Counted from the first letter of the stretch, positions 10,145 through 33,376 are shown. The stretch is 37,380 bases of DNA from a virus (IMGVR_UViG_2718218398_000011); one strand, 5' to 3'. Numbers and translations: made by a program. Notes: a model not told the origin generated them from the sequence alone.

Positions 10145-10717
10145 TCAGGGGGATTCATTGATCTTATTTGCCGGAAATTTTCTATAAATGGTAGAAACGC
10201 CTACATCAAAAATCAGTGCAATACGCTGTCTTGATTCTCCGGCCTCGAGTAAACGCCCAATCTGTGCCCACTGTTCGGTGGTCAACTTAGGACGGCGTCC
10301 ACCTACTCTGCCTTTGGCACGAGCTGCAGCCAGCCCTGCCCTGGTACGTTCAACTATCAGTTCGCGTTCCATTTCAGCCAGGGCACCCATGACATGAAAA
10401 AAGAAACGGCCCATTGGGGTACTGGTATCAATACTGTCAGTCAGGCTTCTGAAATTCACACCACGCTGGCGCAACTCTTCTATCAGCGTAACAAGATGCC
10501 GCATACTGCGCCCCAACCTGTCCAGCTTCCAGACAACCAGCGTGTCTCCTGCCGATAGTGTCCTGAGTAGTTTTTTCAGCCCCGGTCTGTCGGACTTAGT
10601 GCCACTGATTTTGTCCTCAAAAATCCGCTCACATCCCGCGCAGTTCAGTGCATTACGTTGCAAATCGGTGTTCTGGTCATTTGTTGACACGCGTACATAG
10701 CCAATAAGCATGATCAT
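10145..10717 (-). CDS. serine DNA invertase (Hin/Gin/Pin/Cin family)
   Basis: N-terminal GYVRVSTNDQ serine-recombinase motif and C-terminal HTH; 190 aa; adjacent to an inverted-repeat crossover site. Confidence 0.9.
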   Translation of the reverse strand: MIMLIGYVRVSTNDQNTDLQRNALNCAGCERIFEDKISGTKSDRPGLKKLLRTLSAGDTLVVWKLDRLGRSMRHLVTLIEELRQRGVNFRSLTDSIDTSTPMGRFFFHVMGALAEMERELIVERTRAGLAAARAKGRVGGRRPKLTTEQWAQIGRLLEAGESRQRIALIFDVGVSTIYRKFPANKINESP

Positions 10718-10766
10718 CCCCCTGAATAAAAACCGGAGATGATGCCAGTTAGCTGTTACCTCTGCA

Positions 10767-10794
10767 TTTTCTTAAACGTTGGTTTGGGAGAAGC
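10767..10794. repeat. inversion site, left (gix/hix-like)
   Basis: TTCTTAAACG-TT-GGTTTGGGAGAA; the inner half and core are the exact inverse of the site at 12623..12650. Confidence 0.6.
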
Positions 10795-11113
10795 GGCAAA
10801 ACGGAATGTGGGAACAGGGGAAAATCAGATACCTGATATGTCAGCTTATTCATCAGGATCTGGCTGGCAAAAATTGCCTGATGGTTCAATTGAACAGTGG
10901 GGAAGAATTAATTTCCCGAATAACGCCGCGGCGGTATCTACAAATGTGACTTTCACCATTCCTTTTACGCAGGAGCCAGACGTAGTGATTGTATATGACG
11001 GCGGTTTTGGTGGTGGGAATATGTGGGGCGCAACTAACTGGACGAAAACAGGTTTCGTTGCTCATTGTAACTATGGCTTTGAAGGTGGAGCCTTCTACGC
11101 GAAAGGGCGTTAA
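10781..11113 (+). CDS. alternative tail-fibre C-terminal exon (silent in this orientation)
   Basis: Open frame runs through the left site with the same GGT TTG GGA GAA (GLGE) codons as gene H at the right site; no independent start expected. Confidence 0.55.
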   Translation, partial: GLGEAAKRNVGTGENQIPDMSAYSSGSGWQKLPDGSIEQWGRINFPNNAAAVSTNVTFTIPFTQEPDVVIVYDGGFGGGNMWGATNWTKTGFVAHCNYGFEGGAFYAKGR

Positions 11114-11115
11114 TT

Positions 11116-11556
11116 ATGAAATATTTGTATGTTGATAATCTGGCGTACCCTTATGCCCTCCAGTCTGTTTACGCTGCAAAAGGCCAATGGCCCGAAGGTA
11201 AAGGCGTGGATATAGACGAAGCTATTTTCAGGGAATATTTCCATGATACGCCGCCTGACGGTAAGTACAGAATTACCGGAGACGATGGAATGCCAGCATG
11301 GGCAGATGTTCCACCGCCAACACGTGAAGAACAAATTGCATCAGCCGAAACTAAAAAGCAGCAATTGATTAATCAGGCCAACGATTATATGAACAGTAGA
11401 CAATGGGCTGGTAAAGCGGCTATTGGTCGTCTGAAAGGTGAGGAACTGGCGCAATATAATTTGTGGCTGGATTATCTGGACGCACTGGAGCTGGTCGATA
11501 CTTCCAGTGCACCAGATATTGAATGGCCTACTCCTCCGGCAGTTCAGGCCAGATGA
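11116..11556 (+). CDS. tail fibre assembly protein (alternative)
   Basis: 146 aa; C-terminus (WLDYLDAL...APDIEWP) resembles the Tfa on the opposite strand. Confidence 0.7.
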   Translation: MKYLYVDNLAYPYALQSVYAAKGQWPEGKGVDIDEAIFREYFHDTPPDGKYRITGDDGMPAWADVPPPTREEQIASAETKKQQLINQANDYMNSRQWAGKAAIGRLKGEELAQYNLWLDYLDALELVDTSSAPDIEWPTPPAVQAR

Positions 11557-12130
11557 CATCCGGCGCGGTGCTGATATCTGTTGCCGTCACCGCGTCAATG
11601 TAATCCAGCACAGCGTTAAGCCGGGTTGTTTCTGCCTGCGTCAGTTTCCGCCCGGCCTGTAATTTCAGTTGAATCAGACTAATGGAAGCCATTGCAGTAT
11701 CAATCAGTGACTGACGCTGTGCTTCTGCCGCGTCTACTGCGGCGCGATGCTGTGCCTCAGTATCGGTCACCCATTTCTCACCATCCCATTTATCGTATGG
11801 CGTTAATGGGGCGATAGTGGTTGTATTTTCGGGGTAATCACCCGGAGTTGTGATTTCTTTGGTGTCTCCCGTTTCGGTGTTATAGACGATTTCACCGCGA
11901 TGGTCTGGCACATATTCCCATGAGTTTAAATCTGCCGAACGGCAGATTGCATAACCAGCCTTATGTATACCAGGTTCATCCAGACAGGAATATGCCGGGA
12001 TACCAACACCAACGGCAAGATATTCATTTGAAGTGGAAATATATTCCCGAGTTTCACCATCATAGCTATAGACGGTAATATTCCCCGCCTTCGTGGCAAT
12101 AAGCTCGCTATTTAATACAGCGTTATCCAT
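11528..12130 (-). CDS. tail fibre assembly protein
   Basis: 200 aa, directly downstream of H; conserved Tfa C-terminus (LDYIDAV...APDVIWP). Confidence 0.8.
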   Translation of the reverse strand: MDNAVLNSELIATKAGNITVYSYDGETREYISTSNEYLAVGVGIPAYSCLDEPGIHKAGYAICRSADLNSWEYVPDHRGEIVYNTETGDTKEITTPGDYPENTTTIAPLTPYDKWDGEKWVTDTEAQHRAAVDAAEAQRQSLIDTAMASISLIQLKLQAGRKLTQAETTRLNAVLDYIDAVTATDISTAPDVIWPELPEE

Positions 12131-13686
12131 TATGCAGCTCTCACAATATAATTAAATGACGTATTACGTGGTCGTACTGATATCCATGCACTATAAAAAC
12201 CGTCTTCTGCTGTTCTCTGCGTTCCCGTAATGGAGTTATCAGACGAAGCTGGAACATAGTTACTGCTGTCGCCAGCTTTAGAATTAGCAGGTATCCCGCT
12301 TGTTTGTACTTTATCGGCGGAAGCAAATGCTATCCCCACCTTGACAGAGGTTGTTGTATCAACCCCGTAATAATCCTGTAACGCTGTACGAATAAAAGTT
12401 GCATCCTGACCACTGAGTAGTGATCGTCCACTGTCTACACCGCGTCCATCATCCCAGCCACGAATAAACTCACCGCGTAAATCAGGCAATTTATTTGTCG
12501 GGTAAGCCTTTGCCAGTTCCGGGTATTCTTCAGCAGAAAAAGCTGCACCATTGCATTTCAACCAGCCTGTCGGTGGTGTAGCTGAAGGCCACGGAACAGG
12601 CACACCAACCGGTAATGCTGAACCTTCTCCCAAACCAAGGTATGCGAGAAGACCAGCAACATCCTTTCCACTCAAATTAGTCAGCGTATTGTCCAGCGGT
12701 TGTTTACCTGCCAGTGCATTAAGCATTGTCGTGGCAAAGTTCGGGTCATTCCCCAGCGCCGCCGCCAGTTCGTTCAGTGTATCCAGTGCCGCAGGTGCAG
12801 AACCCACCATTGCCGCAATCGCCGATTTCACAAATGCCGTGGTGGCAATCTGTGTATTGTTGACCGACTGTGCCGCAGTCGGTGCGGTTGGCGTTCCGGT
12901 GAGTGCCGGACTCGACAGCGGCGCTTTCAGTGCCAGCGCATTGTTAATGGTGGTACTGAATTTCGGATCATTGTTAATGGCTACGGCTATTTCTTTCAGC
13001 GTGTCCAGCGTGGCTGGCGCATCATTAATAAGAGCCGTCAGTGCCGCCTGAACAAATGCGGTGGTCGCAACCTGCGTGGTGTTATTCCCCGTCGCTGGCG
13101 TTGGCGCTTTGGGTGTCCCGGTAAACGTAGGACTTTCTTTGGCTGCATACTGTGAATGCGGGTCCGGTGCGGCAAGATGTTTTGCCATCTGATCATCCGC
13201 GTACACCTTCAGCTCCAGTGCCTTGTCATCCACATACTTGCGGGTTGCCAGCACTACAGCAGGGTCGATTTTCAGGGTGATATTGTCCGTGCTGCTGGTA
13301 ATCAGCACCATGCGCACGGTCTGGGTACGCCCGCTGCCTTCAGCCAGTTGCGGCTTATAGCTTTCCGGGCAGTTGCCCACGGCAATCAATGCCCCTGACT
13401 CATCAAACAGGCCCACTTCACGTATCCACCAACCGCCCTCGTTTTCAGGGATCACCTGTTCAGCAATAATCTGGCTGCTGTTCTGTGGGTCGATATAGAG
13501 CATATTCAGCGCAGCCCGACGTTTCTCATTTACCAGTGCACTCTGCTTTGCGTCCGGCGTCGGCAATGTTCCGCCACCATCGCCCACCGCCATATGGGTA
13601 ATTTTTAGCGGCACACCGAGCGCGGCGGCGCTGGCAAGTTTCGCCGCGCCAATATCCGTCAGCAGGGTATAAAATTTTGTGCTCAT
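12130..13686 (-). CDS. H: tail fibre protein H (constant N-terminus plus currently fused variable C-terminus)
   Basis: 518 aa, P2 gpH-like N-terminus with repeat-rich shaft; the inversion site lies inside the codons for LGLGEG. Confidence 0.9.
   Translation of the reverse strand: MSTKFYTLLTDIGAAKLASAAALGVPLKITHMAVGDGGGTLPTPDAKQSALVNEKRRAALNMLYIDPQNSSQIIAEQVIPENEGGWWIREVGLFDESGALIAVGNCPESYKPQLAEGSGRTQTVRMVLITSSTDNITLKIDPAVVLATRKYVDDKALELKVYADDQMAKHLAAPDPHSQYAAKESPTFTGTPKAPTPATGNNTTQVATTAFVQAALTALINDAPATLDTLKEIAVAINNDPKFSTTINNALALKAPLSSPALTGTPTAPTAAQSVNNTQIATTAFVKSAIAAMVGSAPAALDTLNELAAALGNDPNFATTMLNALAGKQPLDNTLTNLSGKDVAGLLAYLGLGEGSALPVGVPVPWPSATPPTGWLKCNGAAFSAEEYPELAKAYPTNKLPDLRGEFIRGWDDGRGVDSGRSLLSGQDATFIRTALQDYYGVDTTTSVKVGIAFASADKVQTSGIPANSKAGDSSNYVPASSDNSITGTQRTAEDGFYSAWISVRPRNTSFNYIVRAA
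12623..12650. repeat. inversion site, right (gix/hix-like), inside gene H
   Basis: TTCTCCCAAACC-AA-GGTATGCGAGAA; the inner half is the reverse complement of the left site's inner half. Confidence 0.6.
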
Positions 13687-22128: not shown

Positions 22129-23895
22129 ATGAACACCACACTGACACCCGCAGATCTCGATCCCCGTCGGCAGGCCATGCTGCTGTACTTTCAGGGATAC
22201 CGCGTCGCCCGCATTGCTGAAATGCTGGGCGAGAAAGTTGCAACCGTTCACAGCTGGAAAAAACGCGACAAGTGGGGTGACTATGGGCCGCTGGATCAGA
22301 TGCAGCTCACCACCGCCGCACGCTACTGCCAGCTCATTATGAAGGAGCACAAAGAAGGGAAAGATTTCAAAGAGATTGACCTGCTGGCGCGCCAGTCTGA
22401 GCGCCACGCGCGGATCGGCAAGTTTAACAATGGCGGCAACGAAGCTGACTTAAACCCTAACGTCGCCAACCGCAACAAAGGCCCGCGCCGTCAGCCGGAA
22501 AAGAATGTCTTCACCGATGAACAGATTGAGAAGCTGGAAGAAATCTTCCATTCCTCCATGTTCAACTACCAGCGCCACTGGTGGGAAGCCGGAAAAACCA
22601 ACCGCATCCGCAACCTGCTGAAGTCACGCCAGATCGGCGCGACCTTTTACTTTGCCCGTGAAGCCCTGATTGACGCCCTGCTTACCGGACGTAACCAGAT
22701 TTTCCTTTCCGCCAGTAAGGCACAGGCCCACGTCTTTAAGCAGTACATCATCGACTTCGCCAAAGAAGTGGATGTGGAACTGAAAGGCGATCCGATGGTG
22801 CTTCCTAACGGGGCCACGCTTTACTTCCTCGGCACCAATGCCCGCACGGCCCAGAGTTATCACGGCAACCTGTATCTGGATGAATATTTCTGGATACCGA
22901 AATTTCAGGAGCTACGCAAAGTGGCTTCCGGTATGGCTATTCACAAGAAATGGCGGCAGACCTATTTTTCCACACCATCCAGCCTGACCCACAGTGCTTA
23001 TCCGTTCTGGTCCGGTGCGCTGTTCAACCGTGGACGCAACAAAGCCGACAAGGTGGACATTGATCTGTCCCACAGCAATCTGGCCCCCGGCCTGCTGTGC
23101 GCTGACGGGCAATACCGCCAGATAGTCACCGTGGAAGATGCGGTGCGCGGTGGCTGTAACCTGTTCGACCTTGACCAGTTGCGCATGGAATACAGCCCGG
23201 ACGAATACCAGAACCTGCTGATGTGCGAGTTTGTGGACGATCTCGCGTCCGTGTTCCCGCTCAGCGAACTACAGGCGTGCATGGTGGACAGCTGGGAAGT
23301 CTGGACCGACTTTCATGCACTGGCGCTGCGCCCGTTTGGCTGGCGCGAAGTGTGGATCGGTTATGACCCGGCAAAAGGTACGCAGAACGGCGACAGCGCC
23401 GGATGCGTGGTGGTGGCACCGCCAGCCGTGCCGGGCGGTAAGTTCCGCATTCTTGAGCGTCACCAGTGGCGCGGGATGGACTTCCGCGCCCAGGCTGACG
23501 CCATCAAAAAACTGACTGAACAGTACAACGTGACATACATCGGTATCGACTCAACCGGCGTCGGTCACGGGGTTTACGAGAACGTGAAAGCGTTTTTTCC
23601 TGCCGTCCGGGAGTTTGTCTACAACCCCAACGTTAAAAATGCCCTGGTACTCAAGGCCTACGACATTATCAGTCACCGCCGTCTGGAGTTTGACGCCGGA
23701 CACACCGACATAGCGCAGTCATTTATGGCAATCCGTCGCGCCACCACCGCCAGCGGCAACCGCCCGACCTATGAAGCCAGCCGCAGCGAAGAAGCCAGCC
23801 ATGCCGATCTGGCGTGGGCAACAATGCACGCACTGTTTAACGAACCGCTGCAGGGCGAGTCCGCCAATACCAGCAATATTGTGGAGATTTTTTGA
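22129..23895 (+). CDS. P: terminase ATPase (large) subunit P
   Basis: 588 aa, P2 gpP-like. Confidence 0.9.
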   Translation: MNTTLTPADLDPRRQAMLLYFQGYRVARIAEMLGEKVATVHSWKKRDKWGDYGPLDQMQLTTAARYCQLIMKEHKEGKDFKEIDLLARQSERHARIGKFNNGGNEADLNPNVANRNKGPRRQPEKNVFTDEQIEKLEEIFHSSMFNYQRHWWEAGKTNRIRNLLKSRQIGATFYFAREALIDALLTGRNQIFLSASKAQAHVFKQYIIDFAKEVDVELKGDPMVLPNGATLYFLGTNARTAQSYHGNLYLDEYFWIPKFQELRKVASGMAIHKKWRQTYFSTPSSLTHSAYPFWSGALFNRGRNKADKVDIDLSHSNLAPGLLCADGQYRQIVTVEDAVRGGCNLFDLDQLRMEYSPDEYQNLLMCEFVDDLASVFPLSELQACMVDSWEVWTDFHALALRPFGWREVWIGYDPAKGTQNGDSAGCVVVAPPAVPGGKFRILERHQWRGMDFRAQADAIKKLTEQYNVTYIGIDSTGVGHGVYENVKAFFPAVREFVYNPNVKNALVLKAYDIISHRRLEFDAGHTDIAQSFMAIRRATTASGNRPTYEASRSEEASHADLAWATMHALFNEPLQGESANTSNIVEIF

Positions 23896-24923
23896 TGGGA
23901 AAGAGTAAGAAGAACCGCGCTGTGTCGACGAACCAGATTCAGCACAAAAGCCAGACTTCAGCCGAAGCATTCAGCTTTGGCGATCCCGTTCCTGTTCTGG
24001 ACCGCCGCGAACTGCTGGACTATGTAGAATGCGTACAGACAGATCGCTGGTATGAGCCGCCAGTGAGTTTTGACGGACTGGCGCGAACCTTCCGCGCTGC
24101 CGTGCATCACAGTTCACCAATTGCGGTGAAATGCAACATTCTGACCAGTACCTACATCCCTCACCCGCTTCTCAGCCAGCAGGCTTTTTCACGTTTTGTG
24201 CAGGACTATCTGGTATTTGGTAACGCTTACCTGGAGAAACGCACGAACCGGTTCGGTGAAGTTATCGCCCTTGAGCCTGCTCTGGCAAAATACACCCGAC
24301 GTGGGTTAGACCTGGATACCTACTGGTTTGTGCAATACGGTATGACAACCCAGCCGTATCAGTTCACGAAAGGCAGCATTTTTCATCTGATGGAGCCGGA
24401 CATCAACCAGGAGATCTACGGCCTGCCCGGCTATCTTTCTGCCATTCCATCCGCCCTGCTCAACGAGTCCGCCACGCTGTTCCGCCGTAAGTATTACATC
24501 AACGGCAGCCATGCAGGCTTCATCATGTACATGACCGACGCCGCGCAGAATCAGGAGGATGTGAACAACCTCCGCAACGCGATGAAAAGTGCCAAAGGTC
24601 CAGGCAACTTCCGCAACCTGTTTATGTACTCGCCTAACGGCAAAAAAGACGGGCTTCAGATCATCCCATTGTCAGAAGTCGCGGCGAAGGATGAATTTCT
24701 TAACATCAAGAACGTAAGTCGGGATGACATGATGGCGGCGCATCGTGTGCCGCCGCAGATGATGGGGATAATGCCAAACAATGTTGGGGGGTTTGGGGAT
24801 ATAGAAAAAGCCAGTTGCGTTTTTGTGCGAAATGAGTTAACTCCTTTACAAAAAAGACTTGTAGAAATTAATATTTGGCTAAAGAAAAAAATAATAGCCT
24901 TCAAAGATTATTCATTGAATTAG
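23892..24923 (+). CDS. Q: portal protein Q
   Basis: 343 aa, P2 gpQ-like; the last ~30 codons are AT-rich. Confidence 0.9.
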   Translation: MMGKSKKNRAVSTNQIQHKSQTSAEAFSFGDPVPVLDRRELLDYVECVQTDRWYEPPVSFDGLARTFRAAVHHSSPIAVKCNILTSTYIPHPLLSQQAFSRFVQDYLVFGNAYLEKRTNRFGEVIALEPALAKYTRRGLDLDTYWFVQYGMTTQPYQFTKGSIFHLMEPDINQEIYGLPGYLSAIPSALLNESATLFRRKYYINGSHAGFIMYMTDAAQNQEDVNNLRNAMKSAKGPGNFRNLFMYSPNGKKDGLQIIPLSEVAAKDEFLNIKNVSRDDMMAAHRVPPQMMGIMPNNVGGFGDIEKASCVFVRNELTPLQKRLVEINIWLKKKIIAFKDYSLN

Positions 24924-24934
24924 ATAAAATGTGT

Positions 24935-24952
24935 GGGGGATGAAAATCCCCC
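24935..24952. terminator. hairpin between convergent Q and the KAP NTPase gene
   Basis: gggggat-gaaa-atccccc, a 7-bp G/C stem with a GAAA loop in a 35-bp intergenic gap. Confidence 0.4.
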
Positions 24953-24957
24953 CCAAA

Positions 24958-26610
24958 TTACAAATACCGTCTAACACGTATTTTATTAATGCTCGACTCA
25001 TTTCCAATTCTTATCAAAGCATTTCTCGCTTTTTCTCCGATGCGTTTCATTCTTTCTGAACCATTGCTATACCCACCAAACTTAAGAGCAGTAGCTATTA
25101 TTGAATCACCACCATCAAGAATGACTTTTTTAAATAAATCATAGTAGTCATCCTCTGAGGCAGCATCCAATATTTCCTCGTGCCTATCAGACCAACCATT
25201 CTGACTTGATAATTTTATTAGAACATCCTTTATAGAACCATCCAGATTTAAAGTAGTAGAATAATCTTGGATTTTTGACTTTAACTCAGCATCTTTTATA
25301 GGATGAACATTCATGTAAATAGATTGAACATATTCCTTAAGAGCATCATTGCCGTAATTAATAAATTTACTTATTAATTCACTTGCTTTAATATTTTCAC
25401 CTAAATCTCTATACAGTCCGACAACACTATCCAAGTCACTTGGAGTTACATACTCTATCCCACCAACCACCGCTTGATATAGATTATCAATAACCTGATT
25501 TCGGTTATCTTCAAATGAATTATAGAAAAGCTTCCATGCTTCAAACAGTGAACCTCGCTTACTATCACGGATAAGTTCATCATTCCTTAGACTTACTTGC
25601 CTTTGGAAATTGTTCATATCAATATATCCATGCCTTACCATGTCTATAAGGACTTCATCAAGTTCGTTTGTTTTTTTATAATCATATATAAGCAAAGTAT
25701 TAAGCCATTTTTTTTCTTTTCCATCCTCTTTTTCATCACGCATATAGATATTTCTCATATTTCTAATATACTCCAATGATGGTACATCTCCATCTGGAGT
25801 AAATGCGTAATGACTCCAACAATACAAAGTTAAGGAGTGTGCGACTTCATTTGCAATTTTTTCAAAATTAACGTTAATGCCAGGTAACAAGGCTAGCAAA
25901 AACCGCTCTATTTTTTTCAGTATCCTAATATTCTTAATACCCAGGGAAATGGAGTATTTGCTTAATAATTTATGAACATCAGAATTATTTTTATATGCTA
26001 TAACTGCACATTCTTCTGGAGTAGGATTATAGGTAATCTCTCTATCAATAACCTTTTCTTTATAAGTGGAGTAGTCATCCATACCACTTGTCCCGTTATT
26101 AAGTAAAAGAACCACCTTACAATTTTTTTGTTCTTTCAATAAAGAAACCAACCCTAAGACATCTTTCACTTCTAAATTTTTACCACGTCTTTCTAAGTCA
26201 TCTATGACTACAATAACATTAGTAATTGACATAAATGACATTGACTCAAGTGTCGTAGTGAAATTTTTCAAAAAAGGTGTATCTTTTAACACACGAGCGG
26301 TCTTTCTAGTGCAGGATTCAAGAAGCCCCTTTGCATTTTGTGTTGCTGTTTTTAAATTAGGTTTGTTTCCAATGAAATCTTTCGTAATTGTATTTTCAAA
26401 GATGGAGTATTTTAATGCGTCCAATGAATTAACACCAAAAAGAGAGACGTAACTATATCTATTAAATGCAATCTTATTTTTATTTTCCTTTAAGAAAGCA
26501 TTCCAAGTATAGGTTTTCCCAATCCCCCACTCACCCTGAATAGCCATTACCTCAGGTTCTGCAGATGAAATAAAGTCTGACAACTGTTCTTTAATATAGT
26601 CTAATGACAT
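24958..26610 (-). CDS. KAP-family P-loop NTPase (cargo; candidate anti-phage protein)
   Basis: Walker A GEWGIGKT and Walker B VVIDDLERR in KAP-type arrangement; start placed at MSLDYIKEQL, which has GGAGA six nt upstream (track ORF starts at 26640); strongly AT-rich. Confidence 0.7.
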   Translation of the reverse strand: MSLDYIKEQLSDFISSAEPEVMAIQGEWGIGKTYTWNAFLKENKNKIAFNRYSYVSLFGVNSLDALKYSIFENTITKDFIGNKPNLKTATQNAKGLLESCTRKTARVLKDTPFLKNFTTTLESMSFMSITNVIVVIDDLERRGKNLEVKDVLGLVSLLKEQKNCKVVLLLNNGTSGMDDYSTYKEKVIDREITYNPTPEECAVIAYKNNSDVHKLLSKYSISLGIKNIRILKKIERFLLALLPGINVNFEKIANEVAHSLTLYCWSHYAFTPDGDVPSLEYIRNMRNIYMRDEKEDGKEKKWLNTLLIYDYKKTNELDEVLIDMVRHGYIDMNNFQRQVSLRNDELIRDSKRGSLFEAWKLFYNSFEDNRNQVIDNLYQAVVGGIEYVTPSDLDSVVGLYRDLGENIKASELISKFINYGNDALKEYVQSIYMNVHPIKDAELKSKIQDYSTTLNLDGSIKDVLIKLSSQNGWSDRHEEILDAASEDDYYDLFKKVILDGGDSIIATALKFGGYSNGSERMKRIGEKARNALIRIGNESSINKIRVRRYL

Positions 26611-26670
26611 GTACATTCTCCGAGATAGATAGTCATCCATATTATAACCCGAGTACTATCAAAGTAATAA

Positions 26671-26696
26671 GCGCGCGCTCGTATCCCCGCCACGCC
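26671..26696 (-). other. candidate cos site (cohesive-end region)
   Basis: Minus strand reads GGCGTGGCGGGGATACGAG CGCGCGC, resembling the P2/186 cohesive end as I remember it (GGCG[A/T]GGCGGGGAAAGCA.. followed by GCGCGC); a G-rich block in an AT-rich island at the expected map position. Confidence 0.4.
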
Positions 26697-27039
26697 TGCC
26701 CGCTTTATGTAGTGGTTTTCATGCACCTGCACGACATAAGCAAAAGCACGCCAGTTCTGGCTGGCCTCAGCAAAAACGATCCTCTAACGATCATGCGATC
26801 TCATGCGTCATAGTCATGCACAGCCAAGGGAAGCGTAAATCCGTATCTGAATGACCGCTGAAAAGCTAATCATACGGGTTTACAAAGATGAAAGTCCGCT
26901 GTGAGCGAAAAGCGGATATTCCCATTGTTTTATCTTGATCTAGTAAAAACAATACCCCCTTTACAAACAAAAATAATGAGTTACTATTTTCAGCTCCTTT
27001 TAACCCAAAGGTTTATAATTAAAAAGGAATGGCATACCG

Positions 27040-27693
27040 ATGAGTAAATACAAACTTTTCGCACAGCTATCAAGATATTCACTTGAAGCGCAGATTGATG
27101 ATTTCGAAAAATATATCCTAGGAGCAGGCGGCCAAAACAGAGTTGACTTAGCGGAATTAAAAAAAGCATATGAAGATGAAAAAAAGAATGCTCCTGACGA
27201 TTATATTAATTACTTAGAAGACTATTATTCAGAGCAATATGATTTCTTAGTTAACATACAACCAAATATTTTTAATAAATCTGCTTTGGTATCTTTATAC
27301 TCATGCTTAGAGCACAACCTAAACGACTATTGCAATATATGTCAAAGGATTGTAAACACCAATATATCAGTAACCGATTTTAATGGTGATGGCATCCACA
27401 AAGCAAAAAGATATTTAACAAAATTAATGGATATAAACTTTGGCCTGTCACAAGAGTGGCAATTCATGACAGAGTTTAACAAAGTAAGGAATTGCATAGT
27501 TCATGCTAATGGAGACATTAAAAAAATGAGCACAGCTGTAGCCTTAAAAAATATCATTGATAAAACACCTACTCTTTCATTAAACAATGAAAATAATATA
27601 ATAATCTCCTTAAATTATTTAAAAGATACTATCACAAAAATTAGAAAACTCTTTCAATGGTTATATACACATCTGGATCAATCATCGAAATGA
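27040..27693 (+). CDS. hypothetical protein with HEPN-like RNxxxH motif (cargo; candidate abortive-infection RNase)
   Basis: 217 aa; EFNKVRNCIVHANG at residues about 146-158 fits the Rx4-6H HEPN signature; AAGGAA ribosome-binding site; AT-rich. Confidence 0.5.
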   Translation: MSKYKLFAQLSRYSLEAQIDDFEKYILGAGGQNRVDLAELKKAYEDEKKNAPDDYINYLEDYYSEQYDFLVNIQPNIFNKSALVSLYSCLEHNLNDYCNICQRIVNTNISVTDFNGDGIHKAKRYLTKLMDINFGLSQEWQFMTEFNKVRNCIVHANGDIKKMSTAVALKNIIDKTPTLSLNNENNIIISLNYLKDTITKIRKLFQWLYTHLDQSSK

Positions 27694-27793
27694 ATACGAT
27701 AACATCTCAGTTTGTTATTGGTCTATTTTTGAAAACAGCTATCGATGATATTAGTCTGTTCTTCGTCAATTAATATGCAATCCATTCATGACA

Positions 27794-27815
27794 CAGGGCT
27801 GCTGTTACAGCCCTG
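27794..27815. terminator. hairpin between the convergent HEPN-like and Abi_C-like genes
   Basis: cagggctg-ctgtta-cagccctg, a perfect 8-bp stem. Confidence 0.35.
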
Positions 27816-27942
27816 ACAACCTTAGACTTCAATCGATTCAGAGATCTCTAACGCATCATCACCCGTTGAACTCACAGCGATAAGTAGACGCTGGCGGCAA
27901 CACAGAAGTGTAGCGGGAATTTGAACCACATAATTTGGTTTG

Positions 27943-28809
27943 TTAGATGGCTTTGCTTCGATATTCAATTTCTAAAATCGCCTTTGTCATTGCCGCAATA
28001 GTTATAGCTTCTACCATAGTCAATTCAGGCTTGTTCAAGCTTCCGTGTCCAGCAGTAGGTAATTTGTTGCGTAAATCATAAATATCTTTAACAGCATCAA
28101 TAAGATTCTTAGGTAATTTTGACATTTTTTCGAACTGTTTAAAAAAACCACCCAATGACTCATTTGCCACATTCGGGTTTTGAGTGATTTCCTTAGCCAT
28201 AGTTTCTAAAATATTAGAGGCTGCGTGCAGTGCACCTGCCGGATCATTATTATCCAAGCAATTATTCATTCTATCTATTTGCTGAACGATATTTGGGTGC
28301 AATCTTTTTAAGTAATCACTAGCCAATTCTTCATTAAAATTTTTGACACTTTCAAAAACATCGCAATCTAAATAAAATTTAGGATTGACTGACATCCATG
28401 TATATTTCCAATCATTTTCTAAATTATCTTTTTCCGCAATACGCCTGCCAGTGTCCTGATCTATCTCATCAACATATTTACACATATAATCGGCGTAGTA
28501 GTGTAAATATCTAAATGATATTTCTGGGCAAAAATTACTAACTGATGCAAGGCCGCCATATTCTTTTGTAGTAACTGTAGGGACTTCTTCATCACATAAA
28601 GATGAGAAAGTGGTTCTTTCCCAAAATTCGCCCAACTCTTTTTCTTTCCTAGTTGCCATACCAGCTATCACATTGATGCTTGAGAGCAAAACTACACTCT
28701 GATAGTATCGAGGACATCTGTATGAACTAGCATATGGGCATATTGATGATGCTTTACGATTAATACGCTCTTTTTCCCACCAATTTTTATCAGGAATAAT
28801 TCTTTGCAT
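27943..28809 (-). CDS. hypothetical protein with Abi_C-like C-terminal domain (cargo; candidate abortive-infection protein)
   Basis: 288 aa; the C-terminal ~100 aa (ALHAASNILETMAKEI ... DLRNKLPTAGHGS ... ITIAAMTKAILE) resemble the Abi_C/HEPN-type domain as I recall it; AT-rich. Confidence 0.45.
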   Translation of the reverse strand: MQRIIPDKNWWEKERINRKASSICPYASSYRCPRYYQSVVLLSSINVIAGMATRKEKELGEFWERTTFSSLCDEEVPTVTTKEYGGLASVSNFCPEISFRYLHYYADYMCKYVDEIDQDTGRRIAEKDNLENDWKYTWMSVNPKFYLDCDVFESVKNFNEELASDYLKRLHPNIVQQIDRMNNCLDNNDPAGALHAASNILETMAKEITQNPNVANESLGGFFKQFEKMSKLPKNLIDAVKDIYDLRNKLPTAGHGSLNKPELTMVEAITIAAMTKAILEIEYRSKAI

Positions 28810-29297
28810 AATTTAGCTACTATCTCACGAGTGAATGAATGTTTAGCCTTCTGCACAGTTTATCAGTTCCGGCATGCCTACTGCTACCCCACTGATTCAA
28901 CTTCAAGTTATGAGTTAAAGCGATTCGGTTTCGCTAGATGACACACTAGTGTTAATTTATGGATAAAAATTTATCACTTAAAATTAACTAATGCCTGTTG
29001 CGACCAAAAGTGTGCTGGAATATTATTTTCGTCTGACCTATTATCAAGCTAATTATCCAAATTAGAGTTACTCTCATTCATCAGCAACAAATAAATACAC
29101 CTGTTCACTTTCTCAAAGTGTTCCTGTTTTATTTTTAAAGCAAACAACGCCGCCTATTCGTCCGAATGTACAACAAACATCAGGTTCTGACACAAAGTGG
29201 ACGATCACTTATCAAAATGACCGCCCACCTTACACCTCATTTCACTCGTTGCCCAAACTCCCCCCAACAGGATAAATCCTCTTGGGGGCAACGTTTC

Positions 29298-29531
29298 TTA
29301 ATGCAGCCAGCTGTCGTCTTCCCACACCTTCTGCATAATTTTCATCACTTGTTTTCTTTCTTCATCCAGTTGCAGTCCGGTCAGTTCCACACCGTTAGAG
29401 CTACCTTTACGGATACGAATTACCGTTTTTGGATACAGGGGGCGCAGATTGCGGTAAAGCTCGGATTCAAGGGCGTCCAGGGTAGACTGGCTAATCTTCT
29501 GCTCTTTATCGATCATTATTTCAATGCGCAT
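29298..29531 (-). CDS. DinI-family protein (Tum C-terminal-like; SOS-induced)
   Basis: 77 aa from MRIEIMIDKEQ...; DinI-like throughout (RIEI..., ...VWEDDSWL). The track ORF starts at 29603 and overlaps the upstream gene. Confidence 0.8.
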   Translation of the reverse strand: MRIEIMIDKEQKISQSTLDALESELYRNLRPLYPKTVIRIRKGSSNGVELTGLQLDEERKQVMKIMQKVWEDDSWLH

Positions 29532-29883: not shown

Positions 29884-32298
29884 TTAATACAGGTTCCGCC
29901 ACTTATCATCTTCCCACAAACGCTGGTTCCGATAGAAGATACGCAAGCCTGCTCCTGACGGAATACTGCCGCCGCGAAGGAGTAAATCGACCTCTTTCTC
30001 GCTACCATCAAATCCTCTGGACTTCAGCTCATAGACGAGCTGCAGTCGCTGATGGTATGTAATTCGCTGTTTGTAGTCTTTACGCCGTTTCGGTTTAACC
30101 AGGCGTAACCTTGCTGCCAGGTCCCGGCGCTCTTTTTTGCTCATACTGTGCAGGTAATCGTGCAACTCCTTGTCATCCATGCGGGTAATGTCCGTTCTGG
30201 TATCCCCATCAGCTGATTTGTCTTTCCCTTGTTGGTACAAATTTTCAGCAAGGGGACAGTTATTGCCACGAGTCCAAGGGGCGCAAGCGCCCTGGTCGGC
30301 TGCCGCCTCCTGAACGTCAACGGCTTTACGGACCATTTTCCACTTCACTGCATGAGTGCAGATCTTGCCCTCTGCAATGGGTGACCAGATGCCATAAATA
30401 CGAATACCGTGATCGCCATAGGCGGTCGGCTCTTCGTTGATTTCATAAGCGGTTCTGATGAGGTGATATTTACGGGGAACCAGTACGCCGCCCTGCTTCA
30501 TGATGTAGGTGGCAAAGCAACCAGCATCAGCTGCAGCCAGAATGGCATCAAGGCGCGGGTTATCCAGTACCGGCGCACCTGCTTTTTTGTCACCCTGTTG
30601 CCTTGCCGCCTGACCAGCCAGCAATCGCAGTTCACGGTAAGCCTGACGCCCCGGAATGCCAAAGAAGCGGAATTGCTGAACACGATGCAGAGACGCCCAG
30701 GCATTAACGTATTCAGCGTTATCACGCAGAGATTTACCCGTTTCCTTGCTGATCTCGCCAGCCAGACCACGCCCGTCAATGTTCTTACTGATGTATTTCG
30801 CGATGTAGCTTGTTGGTGTACCTTTGCGCGGGTTTATCAGCTCAGACTTAAAGCGTGGTCCTGTGTTATTACCCAGCTCCTCGCGGTCTTCACGAATGGC
30901 AAACTTACGCAACAAAGCAGTAATGGCGCGGCGATCTTTTTTGCGCATAAAACACAACAGGTGCCAGTGAACTGTACCGTCATGATGCGGCTCAGCCACC
31001 CGCACGCCATACCAGCGCAATCCGGCTTTGTACATCGCCTTACGAAATGCAGCAAACATGCCGACCAGATAATCACTGCTTTGTCTTACCGTCGCATTTG
31101 TCCAGGTCGGGTTGGGCCTGCCGTTATTTAGCGTGGAATGGAAACGTGACGGACAGGTGATGGTGTAGAAAACGGCGCAGTCACCGCGCATTTCCGCGAT
31201 AAGCTCCAGACCTTTAACACATGCCATCATCTCATTGCGGCGATGCGCCGGGTTGCTACTACTGGCGTTTACCACGTCCTCCATATCCAGCGTGTCGCCG
31301 TCTTCGTTCACCAGTTCATGAGAACGGAAAAACTCCAGCGACTTACGGCGCTGCTCACGTTTATGCATCACGGCTTCATAGCTGACATAGGGAGATGCTT
31401 TTTTGCTGACCAGGCAAACAGCACGCAACTGCTCTTCCCGCCATTCGCAACGCATCTTCCATAATTTCCGATACCACCAGTCGGCGCACAACATACGCGC
31501 CAGCGAACCCGGAATGAGTTCATAGGGTACGGGTTTACGGCGGTTTCTTTTCCGGCGGAGTTGCTCAAACGCAGGAGGGATGACATCCAGACGCAGGGTT
31601 TCCGCCGCCACCCTTTCCCATGTCTTGCGGATTTCTTCTGGCTTAACGTCATCGGTGGCATACAAATCACCACAAGCTGCATCAAGGCACATGCTCATAT
31701 GTGCGGCAACAAGGGTAGACAGGCGCTTCACCTGATCCTGACTCATTTCAGGCAAGATCAGCAGGCCGTCCAGCCCTTCATGGCTTGCCATAAAACGAAA
31801 AGATGCAGATAGCTGGCTGTCGCGTACATGCTCTAGTCGTTCCAGACATGGTTTAATCGTCTCACGCAAATAGCGGGAATAAGCCTTTGGCCTGCCCAGG
31901 CTGCTGAAGTATTCAATACGTTGCATCAGCGGCTTGCTGATATGGGAAGGCTGGGCGTTAACGTCCGCCAGTATGACCATGTCCGGATTAAAACGCTGCT
32001 GCTCATGCACCAGCTTTGCCCGGCTAATGAGCTTATCCTGCTCCATTTCGCGCTGGACAGGATCACGGGATTCATTAAAGAAATAACGCTCCCAGACCTG
32101 ATCACTCAGTGCCTCGCGGCGCAGTTGTTCCTGCTTGTTATCGGCAGCGTACAGAGTGATCAGGTTTGAAAGCGCAGAAACCGGCGCAACTTCCGCCGGG
32201 TCCAGATAAGGGTTAATCGCCTTTTTCGGGCTGTTCCATGAGAATGCTGCGGCGGCCTCGTTAAAGCCGCTGCAGTTGTTCATATCAGCATGTCTCAT
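29884..32298 (-). CDS. A: replication initiation protein A (rolling-circle HUH endonuclease)
   Basis: 804 aa; HUH motif [11 protein letters not shown] and catalytic-Tyr motif [12 protein letters not shown], as in P2 gpA. Confidence 0.9.
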
Positions 32299-33152
32299 GC
32301 ACGTACTCCGTACACGGCAGAACTATCCACGCCACGCGAAGGATCAAATCCCACCCAGCAGCGCGCCCCAGAAACAGCGATGATTTCTGTTGCAGATTTA
32401 CTCTCACCAGCTGCTACGCCGATGCTGCGTTTTGCCTTGATGTAGTGGTGAGTAAAATTGCGATACAGCGAACGGATCAGGGATGTGTCACTGTTAGAAA
32501 CAATGACCGGATGTCCTTCTGATGACCGATGTTCAAGAACGGATGCCAGGTGATACTGGTCATCTTCAGTGAAACCATCAGTGTGATAGCTGGAAAACGT
32601 ACCGTCATACGGCGGATCGCAATACACCACATCCCCCGCCTTCAACATCGCCAGCGTTTCATCAAAGCTGGCGCAGATAAACGTTGCTCGTTGGGCTTTC
32701 TCTGCAAATGCGCAAATTTCTTTTTCAGGGAAATACGGATTTTTATAATTACCGTAGGGAATGTTGAAATGCCCGCTCTTGTTATAGCGACATAACCCAC
32801 GGTAACCGTGACGATTGAGATACAGGAAATATACCGCTTTCATGAAATCAGTAATTTCAGTTGAGTAATTAAACTCCTGCCTTATGTTGTAATAAGCCAC
32901 CTCCCTGTTTGCTTCCTTAAATAAAACTCTGGCGCGAGATATAAACGATTCACAATCAGCGGCAACCTTTTTATAGAGGTTGATTAAATCAGGATTAATA
33001 TCCGCAACCAGATAGCTGGGATAATCCGTCTCCATCATCACAGCACAGGAACCCGCGAAAGGTTCAACCAGTCGCGGGCCAGCTGGAAGATGTTTTTTCA
33101 GTTCTGACATTACGGCGGTTTTATTTCCCGCCCATTTCAGGATGGTGCTCAT
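32295..33152 (-). CDS. dam: DNA adenine methyltransferase (Dam-like, D12 class)
   Basis: PFAGSCAV (FxGxG-type) and DPPY motifs; start placed at [11 protein letters not shown], overlapping the upstream stop by ATGA (track ORF starts at 33212). Confidence 0.85.
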
Positions 33153-33376
33153 ACAGCACCTCCGTTGTAATGTTTGCCTTTCAGCTCTGCGATTTCCTGA
33201 CAGGTAATGCAAAGCTGCACACCTAGAATGGCGCGGCGGCGTGCTGGCGGAATTGGCGCTTCACACTCAATGCAAAGCACGCGGGACACGCCCGGCGTTT
33301 TGGCACGGGCAGCACGGATATGGCGCTGGCGTTCTTCTTCAACGCGCTGCTGTACGAGATCCATTGCATCAGCCAT
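33149..33376 (-). CDS. TraR/DksA-family C4 zinc-finger protein
   Basis: 75 aa; CIEC...CITC zinc finger; positional equivalent of P2 orf82. Confidence 0.8.
   Translation of the reverse strand: MADAMDLVQQRVEEERQRHIRAARAKTPGVSRVLCIECEAPIPPARRRAILGVQLCITCQEIAELKGKHYNGGAV

Follow-up and report, generated by a model that had tools for sequence, protein, structure and literature searches.

The window analysed here, 37,380 nucleotides of viral DNA (IMGVR_UViG_2718218398_000011), is a P2/186-like prophage integrated beside the host gene ybjL, in the same insertion context as the relative L002. Its backbone genes encode a CI-type repressor, CII/CP76, Fil, DinI, an integrase, a Dam methylase, gpA, and a P2-type terminase and portal. 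Between the portal gene Q and the replication gene A, positions 24924–29297 are sharply AT-rich, as an earlier note on this DNA had stated. The G+C content is 0.351 in this stretch, versus 0.566 in the structural region and 0.504 in the window overall; 500-bp windows from 25001 to 29000 lie at 0.32–0.37 and the structural genes at 0.52–0.62. The stretch encodes a KAP-family P-loop nucleoside triphosphatase (NTPase), a 217-residue HEPN-like protein with an RNxxxH motif, and a 288-residue Abi_C-like protein, and both the open reading frames (ORFs) and the domain calls made for these three genes in the earlier note hold. The locus is composed as follows.

23892–24923, + strand: portal gene Q, with its stop at 24923.
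24928–24959: hairpin between the Q stop (24923) and the KAP stop codon (24958–24960); inverted repeat I4, 14-nt arms, 86% complementary.
24958–26640, − strand: KAP ORF of 560 residues; the probable true start at 26610 gives 550 residues, as in RefSeq homologues.
24958–26610, − strand: KAP-family P-loop NTPase of 550 residues, matched in Pfam, PADLOC, and PHROGs; cassette 1, in the slot between Q and cos.
26670–26916, no strand: conserved cos block, 247 bp, G+C 0.514 versus 0.30–0.37 on both sides.
26678–26696: 19-nt cohesive-end core; reverse complement GGCGTGGCGGGGATACGAG.
27040–27693, + strand: gene of the 217-residue solo HEPN-like protein, all-helical, motif R150-x4-H155; cassette 2, in the slot between cos and dinI.
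27710–29195, − strand: cassette 3, with the gene of the 288-residue protein at 27943–28809 (− strand), which has an N-terminal Cys-bearing domain of about 155 residues and a C-terminal AbiJ/Abi_C-type HEPN domain (R247-x7-H255-G256).
27794–27815: perfect 8-bp hairpin, CAGGGCTG-ctgtta-CAGCCCTG, read from the sequence between the convergent 217- and 288-residue genes.
29261–29288: hairpin close to the cargo end, immediately following the dinI-like gene; inverted repeat I5, 13-nt arms, 92% complementary.
29298–29531, − strand: dinI-like backbone gene, 77 residues in relatives (Pfam DinI, 1.3e-22).
29884–32298: replication gene A.

The AT-rich stretch had been taken for a single island, which does not hold, since the 247-bp cos block interrupts it. 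The P2 cos 19-mer gave no match in an exact search or in one allowing three mismatches; the position of cos comes from an alignment with the joined P2 cosR/cosL ends (46 of 59 positions, E = 9e-10). About 150 bp of the block is kept at 89–93% in P2-like phages of Klebsiella, Yersinia, Salmonella, and E. coli, and the block (about 150–250 bp) is the only part common to both kinds of relative, represented by L001 and L002. The positions of Q, A, and the cos core confirm the placement of the stretch between Q and A next to cos. The cos block divides the stretch into two cargo slots, a portal-cos slot (hereafter Q-cos) with the KAP gene and a cos-dinI slot with the 217- and 288-residue genes. The dinI-like gene is the first conserved replication-side gene and does not belong to the cargo; the DinI protein WP_001217575 borders every hotspot variant examined.

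In P2, the 186 bp from the Q stop codon to cosL hold a terminator only, and the genes old and tin are located across the junction, by cosR. Since this gap is otherwise empty in P2, the KAP gene fills a slot that P2 leaves vacant, and the old/tin position previously given for all three genes is correct for the 217- and 288-residue genes but not for KAP, which is on the portal side of cos. Because cos lies between them, the two groups of genes would be at opposite ends of the packaged linear genome. None of the cargo is homologous to P2 Old (an ABC ATPase plus TOPRIM) or Tin, as neither model is among the PADLOC matches.

Pairwise blastn delimits three cassettes. The KAP cassette spans 24924–26669 (G+C 0.33). 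The homology of the 217 cassette to solo copies in Morganella and Salmonella is limited to 27016–27677. The 288 cassette shows 95.6% nucleotide identity to a segment of a lambdoid prophage, and its edge is located about 17 bp past the 217 stop codon. At the other end of this cassette (29195), backbone homology to L002, which also carries KAP, restarts at 29177 with a short overlap.

The contents of the two slots assort independently. When 5,426 complete E. coli genomes were searched by megablast with a threshold of at least 80% of the stretch, the whole stretch was found in none of them. The E. coli matches form two classes: one runs from Q through KAP up to about 26820–26916 of the window, and the other from about 26670 through both HEPN genes to dinI. 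Between identical Q and dinI flanks, at least seven left-slot and at least four right-slot contents occur, and the comparison of the same locus across related P2-like prophages, which the earlier note had proposed, delimits the variable cargo. In relatives that carry the 217/288 pair, the Q-cos slot holds a Vpar_1526 family gene with an 81-residue gene, an HNH gene with an AAA ATPase, an AAA_15/21 gene (549 residues) with a 287-residue gene, an OLD-like protein of 671 residues, an RVT_1 protein of 585 residues, or a 97-residue gene; the pair is accompanied by KAP in this window only. Elsewhere, KAP is found with a 111-residue gene, a 141-residue gene, or nothing in the cos-dinI slot. In the E. 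coli P2-like relatives (L049–L057 and L031), the OLD-like protein of the Q-cos slot consists of AAA_15 and TOPRIM, and the RVT_1 protein is a reverse transcriptase. Since the Q-cos slot of relatives holds such recognisable defence-type genes, it is a defence hotspot itself. More widely, neighbours of the cargo in slots and islands are of known defence types, namely OLD-like, reverse transcriptase, AAA_15/21, SIR2-STAND, and GAPS4. The three cassettes are shown to have separate homology boundaries and separate evolutionary distributions, and to recombine freely with other cargo.

We consider that the AT-rich stretch is the known P2/186 cos hotspot, here with two slots and three independent single-gene cassettes that are candidate defences of the lysogen (probability about 0.72). 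Both position and variable content bear out its earlier description as accessory cargo that a P2-like prophage carries at the Q-A hotspot by cos. The hotspot and its cargo diversity have already been published (Rousset 2022, PMC9122126; Vassallo 2022, PMC9519451; also Odegrip 2006). The present stretch shares the position by cos and the AT-rich, highly variable cargo; these published descriptions, however, take Q-A as one hotspot, whereas cos here yields two independently assorting slots. Since the locus and the kinds of protein are already known, the finding amounts to three further candidate members of these kinds, and the incremental novelty is the two-slot anatomy around cos together with an unannotated N-terminal domain family described below.

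Profile searches of the kind suggested earlier, run with PADLOC 2.0.0, NCBIfam, and Pfam, linked none of the three proteins to a named system that has been validated. NCBIfam gave no match for any of the three, and in PHROGs they match families of 'unknown function' only. The suggestion that the set may be undescribed was overstated: the hotspot is published, the 217-residue protein is already tabulated, KAP matches the PADLOC candidate PDC-S49, and the protein classes have validated members. The 217-residue protein, WP_000049685, is listed by Rousset in Table S5A (PMC9122126) in two arrangements whose other components are called 'hypothetical', and the same table contains 69 'KAP' matches. 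Defences consisting of a solo KAP or a solo HEPN protein in prophages were validated in 2026 (PMC13552941, PMC13586616, PMC13043305), and many unannotated genes of P2 and P4 hotspots have been predicted as defences (PMC13586616). The domain-centric discovery paper PMC13069673 mentions none of the domains found here.

The KAP protein matches Pfam KAP_NTPase (PF07693) with E = 1.3e-8 and 34.9 bits, versus a cutoff of 20. Its N-terminal NTPase domain has Walker A (GEWGIGKT) and Walker B (IVVIDDLER) motifs and is followed by about 350 residues without an assigned domain. No transmembrane segment was found (maximum 19-residue Kyte-Doolittle mean 1.28, with a cutoff of 1.6), and the protein is a soluble variant of its family. 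Transmembrane helices in or before the NTPase domain are frequent in the KAP family and not obligatory. The PDC-S49 model of PADLOC, which has no curated cutoff, aligns to residues 16–445 of the 560-residue ORF over model positions 9–443 of 624 (E = 2.2e-25), and phrog_4740, a family of unknown function, is matched at 7.7e-145. PDC-S names appear in the literature in two incidental mentions only, and the search found no experimental validation of PDC-S49. The family has more than 871 full-length homologues. A relative with 44% identity stands alone beside the portal gene of a Salmonella P2-like prophage; solo KAP genes are also present in a Cronobacter lambdoid prophage and in Shewanella, and KAP occurs in plasmids of about 110 kb in Klebsiella and E. 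coli and in Burkholderia phages.

Several known KAP defences resemble this cassette. EF_KAP (PMC13552941), Reve (PMC13586616), PifA of F, and the candidate PDC-S49 are likewise single genes on mobile elements, with a KAP domain carrying intact Walker A and B motifs and then a large region to which no function is assigned. Reve, validated in 2026, is a single-gene KAP system of P4 satellites (PMC13586616). In EF_KAP, both Walker B and the C-terminal region of unknown function are required, and the defence does not act by abortive infection (PMC13552941). EF_KAP has two transmembrane helices, unlike the KAP protein of this window, and the likeness to Reve and PifA given here is one of description.

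The 217-residue protein carries the Rx4-6H motif of the HEPN superfamily. Its R150-NCIV-H155 motif lies within helix 138–156 of the structural model and is invariant in 13 sequences, among them a Bacillus relative at 24% identity. The family comprises 32 clusters, all from Enterobacterales apart from this Bacillus relative. Homologues at 63–66% identity occur without the 288-residue gene: one stands alone in a Morganella P2-like prophage, between the tail sheath and tail-fibre assembly genes, where P2 has its other known moron site, and another lies beside DinI and an S24 peptidase in a prophage of Salmonella diarizonae. A validated solo HEPN protein is HepS of the Salmonella prophage Gifsy-1, an inactive tetramer that is activated by the siphovirus tail tip protein J and cuts tRNA anticodon loops (PMC13043305). 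The 217 family profile found nothing at E ≤ 10 among PDB sequences, with no detectable relationship to HepS (STM14_3211, PDB 9oik), and the trigger, tetrameric state, and tRNA anticodon targets of HepS are not to be assumed for the 217-residue protein. Profiles of both HEPN families, 217 and 288, gave no meaningful match to PDB sequences.

The 288-residue protein appears to be of the AbiJ type in its C-terminal domain. Its alignment by hhalign to the C-terminus of an AbiJ_NTD4 protein has a probability of 66% (E = 5.8e-5), and the protein shows the HEPN fold with a conserved R...H pair. Pfam Abi_C (PF14355) scores 20.7 bits for a 97%-identical relative and reaches 2e-14 for one family member. 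The 288 family comprises 63 clusters. AbiJ (Abi-859) of Lactococcus combines a variable N-terminal domain, AbiJ-NTD1-5, with an Abi_C HEPN domain (Anantharaman et al., PMC3710099). The 288-residue protein differs from AbiJ in that its N-domain matches no AbiJ_NTD model, its motif is spaced R-x7-H, and its Abi_C match is below the gathering threshold. We rejected Taranis of a Vibrio integron (Abi_C plus AbiJ_NTD5; bioRxiv 10.1101/2024.07.02.601686) as the family of the 288-residue protein, as no AbiJ_NTD5 signal was found.

The 288-residue gene is widespread in other accessory positions. Of the 23 E. coli genomes with this gene, 15 lack the 217-residue gene beside it; among these cases are a P1-like plasmid and a lambdoid prophage, in which the gene lies, split, between the replication and Q-antiterminator genes. 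The homologues in a Pseudomonas defence island, in a Shewanella island, and in all the other genera covered are likewise unaccompanied by the 217-residue gene. In Shewanella, the gene upstream of the homologue was considered as a relative of the 217-residue gene and proved unrelated. A Serratia P2-like remnant carries a homologue near GAPS4 or SIR2-STAND genes, again without the 217-residue gene. This element, seen at three loci of Serratia plymuthica, is degraded, with a truncated terminase, a portal gene, and a partial gpA. A 291-residue homologue follows directly after the portal gene, and the content beyond it alternates between a GAPS4-type PDDEXK cluster and a SIR2-STAND gene; the exchange of cargo goes on in this defective prophage.

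The N-terminal domain of the 288-residue protein defines a much larger family. An exhaustive HMMER search with the 288 family profile found 653 cluster representatives, 552 of them at E < 1e-10. Nearly all match profile positions 1 to about 155 only, and their lengths range from 154 to 819 residues. They include members in Gammaproteobacteria, Desulfobacterota-type lineages, Nitrosomonas, and Verrucomicrobia. A broad alignment had no usable conserved stretch, and 14 related loci were located with a narrower one. A comparison of 91 divergent members shows three invariant residues, C24, C32, and C94, and two that are at least 90% conserved, H145 and C149; these Cys and His residues may form a metal site. 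In the same 91 members, Pfam domains, all lying outside the N-domain, were tallied as TIR_2 in 19, TIR in 11, CAP12-PCTIR_TIR in five, DpnII-MboI in three, PLDc_2 in two, and protein kinase, GGDEF, Schlafen AlbA_2, SEFIR, and Abi_C in one each. The N-domain is found joined to eight effector types or more: TIR, SEFIR, AbiJ-type HEPN, DpnII/MboI nuclease, PLD, protein kinase, GGDEF, and Schlafen. Counted among 149 representatives, 51 have a long soluble C-terminal region, 19 a long C-terminal region with a transmembrane segment, 13 a short tail with a transmembrane segment, and 33 a short tail without one; 24 consist of the N-domain only, and nine have N-terminal extensions.

Known models do not cover this domain. 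Residues 1–170 of the protein and the stand-alone N-domain proteins have no Pfam match at E ≤ 10 (Pfam-A 2025), none of the 91 relatives matches an AbiJ_NTD model at E ≤ 0.001, and hhalign gives a probability of 1% for the N-domain against an AbiJ_NTD4 protein. PADLOC matches among N-domain members include PDC-S66, bSEFIR, ThsB-like, and others; one of 10 sampled relatives was matched by PADLOC 2.0.0, in the C-terminal effector region only. The N-domain follows the logic of a variable sensor domain plus a swappable toxin and is unnamed in Pfam-A (2025). We tentatively suggest that these N-terminal 155 or so residues form a widespread module, not described before, with a sensory or regulatory role in bacterial immunity, a proposal that we hold to be possible though not probable. 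Should the N-domain respond to one specific phage cue, identifying it would account for an entire family of defences that consist of a single protein. Found in hundreds of TIR, HEPN, and nuclease fusions, the N-domain may offer a tractable entry to phage sensing by single-protein abortive-infection systems.

Each cassette would be a self-contained lysogenic-conversion gene that shields the lysogen from other phages. By analogy with HepS, both HEPN proteins may rest as auto-inhibited oligomers. A phage component could then engage the non-catalytic part, which would be the helical N-terminal half of the 217-residue protein or, as in the N-terminal domains of AbiJ proteins, the Cys-bearing N-domain of the 288-residue protein. 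RNA of the host or of the phage, be it tRNA, rRNA, or mRNA, would subsequently be cleaved by the Rx(4-7)H sites and the infection aborted, in the way that HepS acts on its tRNA targets. In the KAP protein, ATP binding and hydrolysis may switch on the C-terminal region of about 350 residues, as the genetics of EF_KAP and other KAP fusion defences would predict.

Several observations weigh against three independent defence genes. A literature search found no papers on WP_000049685, WP_032317446, WP_024199287, or WP_338387170. The HEPN assignment of the 288-residue protein has three weak points: Abi_C scores 18.8 bits, below the gathering cutoff of 24; the R-x7-H motif is one residue beyond the canonical Rx4-6H; and the loop with the histidine is the least confident part of the structural model (predicted local distance difference test score below 50 at residues 254–258). 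In three Vibrio or metagenome contigs, a gene of about 300 residues, a DUF2971 gene, and a 286-residue homologue of the 288-residue protein form a conserved co-directional row with the homologue last, and the 288-residue homologue may therefore not always act alone; DUF2971 is also present in Rousset's table of P2 hotspot arrangements (PMC9122126). Finally, the 217-residue gene of E. coli P2-like prophages is always beside the 288-residue gene, in eight of eight complete genomes and in all nine places sampled.

It is rather unlikely that the genes are not anti-phage at all. They would then be morons that are selfish or useful in some other way: modules for addiction or with a toxin that keep the prophage stable, factors against satellites (P4, for instance), or passengers in decay. 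Partition systems are present in about a quarter of P2-like hotspots and virulence toxins in some, and only three of the eight P2 hotspot systems cloned by Rousset were protective (PMC9122126). H-NS may silence AT-rich cargo. Recurrent decay of the 288 cassette is indicated by eight E. coli genomes in which the gene, at about 97% nucleotide identity, is annotated as two coding sequences and is disrupted, and by the P2-like locus L049, where it is truncated to 150 residues. The one split copy examined, in a lambdoid prophage of E. coli EC261, lies beside zeta-toxin-family and hokD genes. On the other hand, the ORFs are intact in this window, and catalytic and structural residues are kept across families at 25–45% identity. 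The genes also recur beside known defence genes, both in defence islands and at accessory positions in unrelated temperate phages, and the 288 N-domain is partnered by classic effectors of immunity. Moreover, validated defences exist in the KAP class (PMC13552941) and in the solo-HEPN class (PMC13043305).

A second alternative, in which the 217- and 288-residue genes form one two-gene system separate from KAP, either by mutual regulation or with one protein as the antitoxin or sensor of the other, seems improbable to us. The constant adjacency of the two genes in E. coli P2-like prophages would be expected of such a system, and both arrangements of WP_000049685 in Table S5A also contain WP_024199287 (PMC9122126). 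However, the E. coli copies are at least 99% identical over 2.6 kb and count as one lineage, that is, as one inherited arrangement and not as repeated co-selection, and one of the nine sampled places, L049, keeps an intact 217-residue gene next to the truncated 288-residue gene. The two genes are convergent with a hairpin between them, and profile-profile comparison shows their families to be unrelated. Each also occurs without the other, the 217-residue gene as solo homologues in Morganella and Salmonella prophages and the 288 cassette alone in a lambdoid prophage, in most of the E. coli genomes that carry it, and in the other genera.

That all three genes make up one undescribed three-component defence system, as their earlier treatment as one set implied, is highly improbable: their proximity in one AT-rich stretch is the only point in favour, whereas cos separates KAP from the other two, none of the 5,426 complete E. 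coli genomes has the combination, KAP and the 217/288 pair each occur with many other partners, and the cassettes have sharp homology boundaries and solo occurrences elsewhere. Recognising two slots around cos helps to delimit 'systems' in such loci and to avoid false multi-gene calls. Read as three single-gene cassettes, the window offers three compact candidates (0.65–1.7 kb) with obvious catalytic residues, for classes that have been validated only recently.

The earlier note had assigned each gene its own hairpin-terminated transcription unit. Hairpins exist, but not one per gene: Q and KAP share one, and the 217- and 288-residue genes have a single one between them. A scan for terminator-like structures scores the Q/KAP hairpin on the − strand, at 24955–24934, with a T-run. 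P2 has tQ at the same relative place, and the hairpin probably terminates both convergent transcripts, like tQ. Since it has no T-tract, the hairpin at 27794–27815 is not scored as an intrinsic terminator. Promoter-like sites are not enriched in the stretch (20, versus 19.4 in shuffled sequence), and Rfam gave no match at E ≤ 1. Five tandem repeats were found in the stretch, each of two copies and 9–15 bp, four inside the KAP gene and one inside the 288-residue gene. A type III toxin-antitoxin Abi system (AbiF/AbiV/ToxIN-like) was also considered and rejected, as neither a repeat array nor an antitoxin RNA was found in the stretch. A 48-residue ORF with a TTG start (27822–27968, − strand) overlaps the 3' end of the 288-residue gene by 26 nt, within a locally GC-richer patch of the 288 cassette; the lambdoid copy shares this cassette over 27710–29195. 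This ORF is probably spurious.

Two further features lie elsewhere in the window. Immediately upstream of gpA, a 305-residue ORF (32295–33212, − strand) encodes a Dam-like N6-adenine DNA methyltransferase of the D12 class, which was found in all E. coli relatives examined. The other is located at the sheath/tail-fibre position, which is the second defence-enriched locus of P2, the one with fun (Vassallo 2022, PMC9519451), and consists of the following genes.

10145–10717, − strand: serine invertase (Resolvase + HTH_7, 190 residues).
10739–11113: tail-fibre C-terminal fragment (Gp53-like_C), oppositely oriented and adjoining the serine invertase.
11116–11556: second tail-fibre assembly gene.
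11528–13686: main fibre and assembly genes, facing the Gp53-like_C fragment and the second assembly gene.

The region 10145–11556 resembles the invertible segments, of the Mu G or P1 C type, that switch host range.

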